Assembly (NCBI GenBank): GCA_016840165.1
Contig: JAEOSU010000080.1
Coordinates: 128,001 to 192,000 of the forward strand
Direction of reading: 5' to 3'
From: Promethearchaeota archaeon
GTDB lineage: Archaea; Asgardarchaeota; Lokiarchaeia; Sigyniarchaeales; SOKP01
DNA: 64,000 nt
Shown: piece by piece, positions 3,794 to 41,236 of the stretch
Layout of the letters: each line of letters opens with the position of its first letter
How positions within the stretch are numbered: the stretch's first letter is position 1
Notes under the pieces: generated by a model
The model's input: the letters and a program-made list of their open reading frames with translations, nothing else
What the model was told of the DNA's origin: nothing
The model's database searches: none
Position numbers and translations under genes: made by a program

Positions 3794-5074
3794 TTAATTA
3801 ATACCTCTAATACGATAGGCTTCTAATGCTACATCTATGATTTTAGATGCAATATAACGTTTAGTATTTTTTTCTACATGAGTAATGTGTTTTTGCTTAT
3901 CAATAATATATACTTCATTATCCTTACTCATAAAGCCTATATCTTCTCTGGCAATATCATTAGCTACTATTAAATCAGCATCTGATTTTAGAAGCCTTTC
4001 ATAAGCCCGATTTATTAATTCAGTTCTAGATACATTTGATTCTGCTTTAAAAGCAACGATGAAGGCTTTGTAGTTTTTCTTCCGAGCAACATCAATTATT
4101 TTTGGAGTAAGTTTCATGTTTACTTGTAATTCTTCAACATTATGAGATGATATTTTACCATCGATACGTTCGACGGGTTTATAATCTGATATAGCAGCAG
4201 CAGAGATGAAAAAATGATAATCTTTATAACTTAGTTCATCTTTAACCGTTCTAATAAAATCCTCAGTTGAAACCACGTTTATTGTTTCGATATACTCAGG
4301 TATTTTGACCATACATTTACCTGCAATTAAGAGTACATCCGCACCCCTCGCAGCAGCTTCTTTTGCAAGTTCAATACCCATTCTTCCTGAAGATCTATTC
4401 GATACAAATCGAACAGAATCTATTGCCTCTCGAGTTGGACCAGCTGTTATTAAAACTTTCATTCCTTCCAAATCTTTCTTCGCTATAACTAAATCAATTA
4501 CGCGATCGATTACATCCTCAACTTTTGCAACTTTAGCTTTCCCTTCTGAAATTCTCGGCCCTAAGATATCAATTCCATATTTTTTAAGTTTAATTATATT
4601 TTGCTCGATTATGGGGTGAAACATGCTTTCATGCATCGCAGGAACCACAACGATGGGTAAATCAGAACCAAAAGCAGTGGAAACAACTGTAGTGACTGGT
4701 GTATCATCAATACCATTAGCAATTTTTGAGATTGTATTCGAAGTAGCAGGACATACTAATATTAAATCTGCCTTACTTGATGCATTTGGTCTATCTCCAG
4801 CAAGAAAAACATGTTCTACCGCACCAGTTAATTTGGTAATAACAGGATTCCCAGTAGCCCAATGCATTATAGAAGGGTTTATTAATTCTGTTGCAGCTCT
4901 AGACATGACCGTTATAACTTCAGCACCTAATCTCATTAACTCTCTTGCAACTATTGGTGCTGTAATTACTGCAACTGATCCAGTTAAACATAAGCATATA
5001 GTTTTACCTCGTAAGATTGTTCCCTTAGTTTCTACGATGTCCTTAGATGGATGATGATACTTATCTCTCAACAT
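3794..5074 (-). CDS. coaBC: Bifunctional phosphopantothenoylcysteine decarboxylase/ligase
   Basis: LTGSVA, PATSNTISKIA, PAMH, TAGPTRE.ID.VRF.SN.SSG.MG, AAISDY. Confidence 0.95.
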   Translation of the reverse strand: MLRDKYHHPSKDIVETKGTILRGKTICLCLTGSVAVITAPIVARELMRLGAEVITVMSRAATELINPSIMHWATGNPVITKLTGAVEHVFLAGDRPNASSKADLILVCPATSNTISKIANGIDDTPVTTVVSTAFGSDLPIVVVPAMHESMFHPIIEQNIIKLKKYGIDILGPRISEGKAKVAKVEDVIDRVIDLVIAKKDLEGMKVLITAGPTREAIDSVRFVSNRSSGRMGIELAKEAAARGADVLLIAGKCMVKIPEYIETINVVSTEDFIRTVKDELSYKDYHFFISAAAISDYKPVERIDGKISSHNVEELQVNMKLTPKIIDVARKKNYKAFIVAFKAESNVSRTELINRAYERLLKSDADLIVANDIAREDIGFMSKDNEVYIIDKQKHITHVEKNTKRYIASKIIDVALEAYRIRGIN

Positions 5075-26294: not shown

Positions 26295-26555
26295 ATGGCT
26301 GAAGATAACGAATCATTAGAAGATTTAAAATATCTATTAGGAAATATGGGAATTGATATACTTTTAGCTATAGGGGAAGGCGCAAAAGATTTTGAAACTA
26401 TTAAGATATTCTCAGGTTTACCTTTAATATGTGTTAAAGGCCGCATCCCTGTTCTGTTGGAGCTTAATCTTGCGAACAAGGATAATGATGAATATTATTT
26501 AACAGAAAAAGGTTTGCGCTTCAAAAAAGAAATGAATTCAATAATAAAGAAATAA
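26295..26555 (+). CDS. Small winged-helix protein
   Basis: ILLAIGEG...LLELNLA...YYLTEKG. Confidence 0.7.
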   Translation: MAEDNESLEDLKYLLGNMGIDILLAIGEGAKDFETIKIFSGLPLICVKGRIPVLLELNLANKDNDEYYLTEKGLRFKKEMNSIIKK

Positions 26556-26556
26556 A

Positions 26557-26637
26557 TTAGATTTCAGATTGGGGCGACAACGTCCTTGCTACGAGCAATA
26601 GCTCTAATCATTTGTCATAAGTTCATCATCAATCTAA
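26557..26637 (-). ncRNA. Box C/D guide RNA, predicted to target the 23S rRNA G2251 equivalent
   Basis: Terminal stem TTAGATT/AATCTAA; box C ATGATGA (26629-26623); box D CTGA (26567-26564); guide TGTCGCCCCAAT complementary to the P-loop UGGGGCGGCA. Confidence 0.8.
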
Positions 26638-27105
26638 ATCATTATTATCTAAGTCATTGTGAGTTAAATATTTTTTGTAATATTTTTTTTGATAGTACCC
26701 AGGTTCTTTATAACCACCTATTTTATTAATAAGATTGCTTAAACCATCTTCTTGTGAGAGCTCTGTTTTTATCAGATTATATAATTCAATTGAGAGTTCT
26801 TTTCTGTTTAATAAGTATTCTAATATCGCAAATGCATCACTTAAATTATCACAGCGCCTTATGAAATCAAAAACACCAGGATTGGTTATATTTTCCTTAT
26901 AATCTTCAAATGGATTTTTTTCTGATTCCTTTTTTATACGGATAGCGTCAATTGAAAGTTGTTTCTTTTTTTGAACTATCTCTGAGGTTAAGTTCGGAAA
27001 ATGTTTTTCTAAATCCTCTTTAGCATATATTATATTTAATCCATTCTCTTGATTAATTTCAGAATTATTGACGATCTTTTTCTTTTCTTTGATTTTTTTT
27101 TCCAT
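26629..27105 (-). CDS. DUF2095-like archaeal protein
   Basis: FPNL..EI, P.V.DFIRRC, GYKEPGYY. Confidence 0.75.
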   Translation of the reverse strand: MEKKIKEKKKIVNNSEINQENGLNIIYAKEDLEKHFPNLTSEIVQKKKQLSIDAIRIKKESEKNPFEDYKENITNPGVFDFIRRCDNLSDAFAILEYLLNRKELSIELYNLIKTELSQEDGLSNLINKIGGYKEPGYYQKKYYKKYLTHNDLDNNDLD

Positions 27106-37020: not shown

Positions 37021-37137
37021 GGGAAAGTGGCTTGGGAGAGATGATGTTTACTTGCGAGACGTCTCTTCATTGGCTTAGCCTGGTATAGCGCACGGCTGAT
37101 AACCGTGAGGTCGGGGGTTCGAAGCCCCCCTTTCCCA
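37021..37137 (+). tRNA. tRNA-Ile(GAT) with a 43-nt intron in the 5' strand of the D arm
   Basis: GGGAAAG/CTTTCCC-A; CACGG-CTGATAA-CCGTG; GGGGG-TTCGAAG-CCCCC; removing 43 nt between the two TGGCTT copies yields a 74-nt cloverleaf. Confidence 0.88.
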
Positions 37138-41161: not shown

Positions 41162-41236
41162 TGGACTTGGCAGGATTCGAACCTGCGATCTTCGGATTAG
41201 AAGTCCGACGCCATATCCAGGCTTGGCTACAAGTCC
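41162..41236 (-). tRNA. tRNA-Arg(TCT), no intron
   Basis: GGACTTG/CAAGTCC; TCGGA-CTTCTAA-TCCGA; GCAGG-TTCGAAT-CCTGC. Confidence 0.95.

Follow-up and report, generated by a model that had tools for sequence, protein, structure and literature searches.

Genomic context of the element

The window analyzed here is a stretch of 64,000 nt from contig JAEOSU010000080.1 of a Loki-type Asgard archaeon from marine sediment. Two convergent ORFs within it are separated by a gap of 73 nt: an ORF for a small winged-helix protein, which ends at position 26555, and an ORF on the minus strand (26629-27105) whose product matches the Pfam family DUF2095 (E 4.7e-10). The gap is occupied by an 81-nt element on the minus strand (26557..26637) with the hallmarks of a box C/D RNA: a box C of the RUGAUGA type lies close to the 5' end and a box D, CUGA, close to the 3' end. 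Its limits were taken from the sequence, from the ends of the block conserved in relatives, which coincide with these coordinates, and from a covariance-model match of 101.9 bits; metagenome contigs show the same limits of conservation, one record matching positions 26553-26639. An earlier note on this DNA had read the minus strand as UUAGAUU-G-AUGAUGA-ACUUAUGACAA-AUGA-...-UGUCGCCCCAAU-CUGA-AAUCUAA, and we read the same letters. The overlap of box C with the DUF2095 stop codon that it described is also present: the UGA at 26631-26629 and box C (26629-26623) have the base A26629 in common, and the remainder of the codon falls in the terminal stem and the bulge.

The gene order around the element is kept in all loci of the genus (51/51), and the DUF2095 neighbor protein shows 41-58% identity outside the two closest genomes. 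Two wetland metatranscriptome contigs of a relative (~93% identity) span positions 26576-26729, covering two thirds of the element together with the end of the DUF2095 ORF; transcript end and strand are not readable from these contigs. Such bridging contigs would fit co-transcription, with DNA carry-over as an alternative source. Archaeal C/D sRNAs are often co-transcribed with neighboring genes. The probable source of this RNA is the 3' end of the DUF2095 mRNA, either by joint transcription or by processing.

Terminal and internal K-turn motifs

The ends of the RNA form a terminal motif in which the strand UUAGAUU (26631..26637) pairs with AAUCUAA (26557..26563), located directly 3' of box D. 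The perfect 7-bp stem claimed previously was confirmed by reading the sequence, as was the K-turn geometry: the stem is followed by a 3-nt bulge G-A-U, of which the G (26630) lies between the 5' stem strand and box C, and by the sheared GA, while box D abuts the stem on the other side. Box C, AUGAUGA (26623..26629, its first base being the last of the DUF2095 stop codon), is found in nearly all homologues, two g14 rows reading AUGAUGU when registered on the terminal stem; box D, CUGA (26564..26567), is invariant. The fold of the whole RNA is not unusually stable compared with shuffled sequences (z = -1.2); for C/D RNAs, folds more stable than those of shuffles are not expected.

Following box C, the D'-side guide block ACUUAUGACAA (26612..26622) leads to a proximal D'-like AUGA (26608..26611) within a 3-4 nt insert specific to the window's subclade, a spacer base U (26607) and the D' box UAGA (26603..26606), whose GA abuts an internal hairpin, GCUAU-UGCUC-GUAGC (26588..26602). 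The hairpin is followed by a 3-nt bulge AAG (A26587-A26586-G26585, 26585..26587) and by the C' box AGGACGU (26580..26586), composed of the last two bulge nucleotides A-G, a sheared GA (26583-26584) that is invariant in relatives, and the remaining CGU (26580..26582). The 12-nt spacer UGUCGCCCCAAU (26568..26579), which constitutes the D guide, fills the space between C' and box D.

The C' box had been described as degenerate, a description that comparison with relatives does not bear out. An invariant GA stands 15 nt before box D in 43 of the 55 parsed homologues, a distance made up of the sheared GA, three box nucleotides and a 12-nt spacer, which marks a functional C'; relatives read AUGAUGU, GAUGA, GAUGACG or AAUGA at this position. 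On the other side of the hairpin, a GA directly precedes the stem in 50/55 homologues, often as UUGA, CUGA or GUGA. The hairpin ends 3 nt before the GA of C', and the complete layout of GA, stem, three nucleotides and GA is seen in 55 of 58 sequences. In archaeal sRNAs the internal motif is usually a K-loop; judged by this layout, the hairpin is the canonical stem of a complete predicted internal K-turn that replaces it. The stem is known in several covariant forms, GCUAU/AUAGC, GCUUU/AAAGC (in four relatives), GUUAU/AUAAC, AACUAU/AUAGUU and GAUCU/GGAUC. In the Promethearchaeum and Lokiarchaeum versions, it is a mini-hairpin of 2-3 bp only, and the RNA measures ~66-76 nt.

The hairpin loop UGCUC (26593-26597, minus strand) is nearly invariant in the window's family, despite the covarying stem.

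Other pairings were considered and rejected. An alternative hairpin GAGC/GCUC is not maintained in relatives with a different stem sequence (such as g12, with GAAC), and pairing of GACAA with a UUGUC inside the D spacer shows no compensation when either side changes. For a stem enclosing UGACAA (formed between the D' box region and the 5' portion of the D' spacer), the variation is at least equally well explained by pairing with helix 89 of the 23S rRNA.

Conservation and covariation of the family

A 161-nt query retrieved copies with 79-93% identity from 22 of 24 congeneric genomes, the match being limited to the 81-nt element; its flanks are not alignable among congeners. With a covariance model based on the genus, 126 of 151 genomes of the order gave a single strong match each (114/131, 10/14 and 1/1 in three families and 0/4 in a fourth), and conservation, the absence of which the earlier note had named as an argument against its own reading, is thus present order-wide. 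For five congeners without a match, the syntenic contig stops before the locus (G100 and G061), the neighboring gene is missing (G021), or the neighbor is only 40-43% identical (G010 and G020); none of them demonstrates loss.

In the order-wide alignment, which was fitted to the covariance model and thereby favors the modelled structure, all 14 modelled pairs changed on both sides (9/9 in the terminal stem and 5/5 in the hairpin), and 91.6% of the cells were paired, versus 58% in shuffles and at most 48% with slid partners. The same compensations are already visible in a genus-level MAFFT alignment. For the hairpin, 98.4% of the cells are paired. From its boxes, covarying stems and distribution, we read the element as a genuine box C/D guide sRNA conserved throughout this order of Loki-type Asgard archaea.

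A search of GTDB species genomes with an exact pattern gave 107 matches, nearly all of them labelled Promethearchaeota or Promethearchaeia, including Promethearchaeum syntrophicum MK-D1 (NZ_CP042905.2; G038:C1:252942-253017, minus strand), Candidatus Lokiarchaeum ossiferum B35 (CP104013.1; G051:C1:3324169-3324234, minus strand) and Candidatus Harpocratesius repetitus. In the phylum-wide search with the covariance model, no true member of the family was found beyond the order; the weak matches were other C/D sRNAs, some of which carry a P-loop guide in another slot.

Several matches labelled Thor-, Odin-, Hod- or Hermodarchaeota carry sequences characteristic of the window's family, with 25-28% G+C. 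Contig DATKTW010000128.1 (29% G+C), filed as Candidatus Nanopelagicaceae bacterium (an actinobacterial MAG), also has a full-length copy of the sRNA at positions 4988-5052, in the version characteristic of the window's genus, and looks like a mis-binned Loki contig.

Pairing of the D guide with the 23S P loop

The 23S rRNAs of the same genus are 3334-3368 nt long. An LSU covariance search of the organism's own genome gave no 23S match, and BLAST located its 23S gene split over two contig ends (C64:52628-53751, minus strand, and C49:1-984). The 3' part, at the end of contig C64, contains the P loop, and the stretch reads GGCUGGGGCGGCUC.

Positions 3-11 of the D guide (GUCGCCCCA) form nine contiguous pairs with the P-loop sequence UGGGGCGGC, of which eight are Watson-Crick pairs and one is a G.U pair, and position 2 gives an A.C mismatch with the own 23S. 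Position 5 lies opposite the second G of the target; in E. coli rrlH, UGGGGCGG has G2251 as its second G. The selection of the G2251 equivalent by the fifth nucleotide from box D, as proposed in the earlier note, therefore stands, and the guide pairs with the host's own 23S on contig C64. The details of the duplex were amended: since the target in this lineage reads UGGGGCGGCU and not ...GGCA, the duplex has 9 bp rather than 10. It is the most stable one for this guide in the 16S and 23S rRNAs of a congener (-19.4 kcal/mol).

The block that is invariant in the genus, GUCGCCCCAA (GUCGCCCCA(A)), very nearly coincides with the paired block, and the bases 5' of it vary. In 23S rRNAs of the Promethearchaeum type, the pair 2248-2256 is flipped (CGGUGGGGCGCC); guide position 2 is C in 9/9 sequences of this type, where it pairs with G2248, and A or G in all lineages with C2248. 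The Promethearchaeum-type guides retain the U opposite C2256, which results in a mismatch. The change of position 2 together with 2248 was probably one evolutionary event, and it is consistent with the P-loop assignment without being decisive. Given these pairings, the target of the D guide is almost certainly the P-loop G2251 equivalent, with Gm as the predicted product.

A P-loop guide (UGCCGUCCCAAU-CCGA) also occupies the D' slot of a compact canonical C/D sRNA from a different Asgard family (G178:C129:24146-24221, L134), the D guide of this sRNA being unrelated. Guides for the G2251 equivalent thus seem widespread in the phylum, in non-homologous contexts.

The own 23S diverges from that of relatives directly after AAGAGU (E. 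coli ~2473), continuing into CCCUAAAUCUGGAGCAAU, and the related genomes G076 and G078 have an insert of ~135 nt near this region, which suggests introns or insertions in domain V of the 23S rRNA.

The D'-side guide and helix 89

The target of the D' guide had previously been left unassigned. It is assignable to 23S positions 2457-2467 (E. coli numbering), and base complementarity across the order makes the base of helix 89 the probable target of this second guide. Within the guide block, GACAA is kept order-wide (GACGA in two divergent rows) and is complementary to UUGUC at 2457-2461; the bases 5' of GACAA vary. The window guide ACUUAUGACAA pairs with the own UUGUCACGAGU at 10 of 11 positions, with one A.C mismatch. 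The guide ACUUGUGACAA of genera g13 and g15 forms a perfect 11-bp duplex with the site, and for UCGUGACAA of G070 the duplex has 9 Watson-Crick bp. In the Harpocratesius and Lokiarchaeum types, the guide UCCUAUGACAA fits the 23S sequence of these organisms, UUGUCGCAGG, and the MK-D1-type guide has CCC facing GGG of helix 89. The 5' part of the guide tracks the helix-89 strand (CUU/CUC with GAG, CC with GG, CCC with GGG), these changes amounting to few independent events.

A second arrangement of the same guides was found in a distant Asgard genus, g30, which has genomes of 2 Mb. A compact C/D sRNA in three of the four searched genomes (G223:C115:11234-11344, L147; G166:C5:32312-32390; G156:C2:98438-98530) carries both guides in swapped slots, the D' slot being taken by the P-loop guide (CGCCGUCCCAGU or CGUCGCCCCAGU) and the D slot by (C/G/A)CUCAUGACAA(C/A), directly before a canonical CUGA. 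The helix-89 guide, CCUCAUGACAAC-CUGA, here stands in a canonical 12-nt slot, from which the fifth-nucleotide rule leads to U2460, and the 23S rRNA of a g30 congener fits both guides. Among 400 Asgard genomes, the swapped-guide pattern matched only genus g30, and we count this genus as independent support for the helix-89 assignment.

The register of the D' guide leaves room for another view, according to which the RNA is a single-guide C/D sRNA: the D guide alone would direct methylation and, in the window's subclade at least, the D' block would either be a relic or assist the folding of domain V as an accessory pairing or chaperone element. Between box C and the GA of D', 22 of the 55 homologues, the window's RNA (16 nt) among them, have a spacer of 15-17 nt, a length that places position N+5 outside the helix-89 duplex, so that the 3-4 nt insert of the subclade makes the register of any D' methylation doubtful. 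The D' GA is missing altogether in 5/55 homologues, and the proximal NNGA is not conserved within the genus, its GA being lost in G022, G019, G013 and G012 and the whole insert being absent in G023, G016 and others. Against a single-guide RNA, the pairing block is still selected in long-spacer forms (the perfect 11 bp of g13 and g15 being an example), a spacer of 12-13 nt is kept in 28/55 homologues, and g30 has the same guide in a canonical slot beside CUGA. On this evidence we regard a single-guide RNA as a real possibility, though a doubtful one.

A different target for the D'-side guide, the 23S sequence GUCGUGAG (E. coli 2592-2599, near helix 93), is rather improbable. With the rRNA of a congener as the target, it forms the best duplex in 16S and 23S for the window-type guide, at -10.5 kcal/mol compared with -9.2 kcal/mol for the helix-89 site; yet the helix-89 site ranks first for five of the seven guides tested, and GUCGUGAG is not at the top for the other five. 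Pairing with GUCGUGAG would leave the invariant 3' AA of the guide unpaired and the conservation of GACAA unexplained. This site is identical among the lineages examined, although the 5' part of the guide varies, and the CC/CCC changes that follow GG/GGG of helix 89 would have no explanation. We therefore retain the base of helix 89 as the probable target of the second guide.

Comparison with known C/D RNAs

C/D-guided methylation of 23S G2520, which corresponds to E. coli G2251, was predicted in three of seven species by Dennis et al. 2015 (PMC4644070), and their target table assigns G2520/U2544 to one sRNA and G2490/G2520 to another. These sRNAs resemble the Loki element in RNA class, in the predicted P-loop (helix 80) nucleotide, in the two-guide logic and in a second target nearby in domain V. 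They differ in their thermophilic, non-Asgard hosts and in their second targets (U2544 and G2490 in alignment numbering), whereas the second guide of the Loki element pairs with 2457-2467, and its covarying hairpin between D' and C' gives a full K-turn. The comparison covers class, targets and architecture.

In yeast, snR67 guides Gm2619, the equivalent of Gm2251 (PMC11121408), in agreement with what the earlier note had stated. The snR67 family (RF01177) addresses the same P-loop nucleotide and differs in its second guide, which is for U2724 and not for the base of helix 89. The guide core UGUCGCCCCA-CUGA, with its U opposite G2256, is also present in the consensus of the trypanosome snoTBR7 (RF00295). 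Likeness to snR67 and TBR7 is limited to the boxes and to a guide dictated by the target; the guide is the same because the target is shared. An Rfam search at gathering thresholds gave no match for the locus. Comparison with the eukaryotic snoRNA models yielded scores below threshold throughout, 12.6 of 55 bits for snR67, 20.5 of 45 for TBR7 and 15.2 of 37 for snoU31b (RF01285), and membership in these families is unsupported; the best score to any Rfam snoRNA family was 24.5 of 41 bits, for snR60/Z15. As the family is missing from Rfam, genome annotation will miss it.

The stretched architecture had also been taken as more eukaryote-like than archaeal, a view that is not upheld by archaeal RNAs of similar design. 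Self-complementary stretches between D' and C' occur in sR102 and sR105 of Methanococcus maripaludis and in sR474 of Ignicoccus hospitalis, according to the sequences printed in PMC4644070 (Additional file 1), the hairpins being our reading of these sequences and not a claim of that paper. These archaeal C/D sRNAs of ~70-85 nt share the stretched architecture and differ in guides and targets, and the Promethearchaeum/Lokiarchaeum branch of the present family falls within ~66-76 nt. A full-text literature search found no description of C/D sRNAs in Lokiarchaeia and nothing specific on those of Asgard archaea.

Both oddities of the Loki-order family, the guides swapped relative to g30 and the internal hairpin, would be explained if it had arisen by circular permutation from an older two-guide sRNA of Asgard archaea, a type that g30 has retained. 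The ancestral order would have been C, P-loop guide, D', loop, C', helix-89 guide and D. Opening of such an RNA in the D'-C' loop, together with closing of its terminal stem, would let the guides swap slots, and the old terminal K-turn stem would become the present internal hairpin. We give this scenario only a slim chance of being correct. In a weaker variant, the Asgard P-loop guide would share ancestry with the guides of eukaryotic snR67 and TBR7.

Proposed function

Taking the pairings, boxes and covariation together, we consider it very probable that the element is a box C/D guide sRNA of Lokiarchaeia with a P-loop D guide and a D'-side pairing to helix 89, which would assemble into an sRNP. 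The genome has adjacent genes for fibrillarin (242 bits) and Nop5 (203 bits) on contig C100 and, in addition, two genes of the L7Ae family. The terminal C/D K-turn and the internal C'/D' K-turn, in which the covarying hairpin takes the place of the usual K-loop, would each bind L7Ae, and a Nop5 dimer with two fibrillarins would then assemble on the sRNA. Pairing of the 12-nt D spacer with the P loop (E. coli 2249-2257) would position the G2251 equivalent five nucleotides from box D, with its 2'-OH in the fibrillarin active site, and lead to Gm2251. The D'-side spacer would pair with 2457-2467 at the base of helix 89, and in homologues with a D' spacer of 12-13 nt the predicted product is Um2460. 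In the window's subclade, with its 16-nt spacer, this pairing may only hold the pre-rRNA, as an accessory or chaperone; alternatively, the proximal AUGA could serve as D' and direct methylation to C2461.

That the element is instead a conserved 3'-UTR or terminator common to the convergent DUF2095 and winged-helix genes, and not a free-standing guide, is extremely improbable: the filled intergenic gap, the overlapped stop codon, the gene order kept throughout the genus and the RNA contigs joining ORF and element would suit it, but a terminator has no need for invariant RUGAUGA/CUGA boxes, two GA-GA K-turns and an invariant stretch of 10 nt that can pair with the P loop, the whole-RNA fold lacks unusual stability, and the bridging contigs are equally compatible with a guide RNA, given the frequent co-transcription of archaeal C/D sRNAs.

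Gm2251 of the P loop is among the very few rRNA modifications common to all three domains, and in bacteria it is made by a protein enzyme, RlmB. Loki-type Asgard archaea are the closest known relatives of eukaryotes, and the guide sRNA proposed here suggests that they use an RNA guide for Gm2251, as eukaryotes do with snR67. The element is a further case of a known RNA class, and guiding of G2251 methylation by C/D RNA was already known; with its second predicted target beside the peptidyl transferase center, the family could be the first anchored C/D example from Lokiarchaeia. The presence of the guide in the cultured or enriched strains MK-D1 and L. ossiferum makes the prediction directly testable.

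Other RNA genes in the window and the genome

The genome was scanned for more C/D sRNAs, candidates having to combine the C and D boxes with a stem of ≥4 bp and an rRNA duplex of ≥9 bp; the scan gave 9 matches with the rRNA targets and 9 with reversed targets, which makes it uninformative on the number of guides in the genome.

In the window, Rfam models matched a full tRNA at 41162-41236 (minus strand) and, partially, another tRNA at 37071-37129 (plus strand; model positions 8-63, 40.5 bits), perhaps an atypical tRNA gene, for instance one with an intron. The same genome has a second stretched C/D-like RNA at ~210230-210345 of contig C63, ~18 kb past the end of the window. This RNA has the same internal layout, with AUGA, a 7-bp hairpin CCUAAUU/AAUUAGG and then GAU-GA, and differs in its guides; its D-side guide, AAUCUUAUAGUUACAU, resembles an sRNA guide in the Asgard family of G243 and G252, UAGAUUAUAGUUACU.
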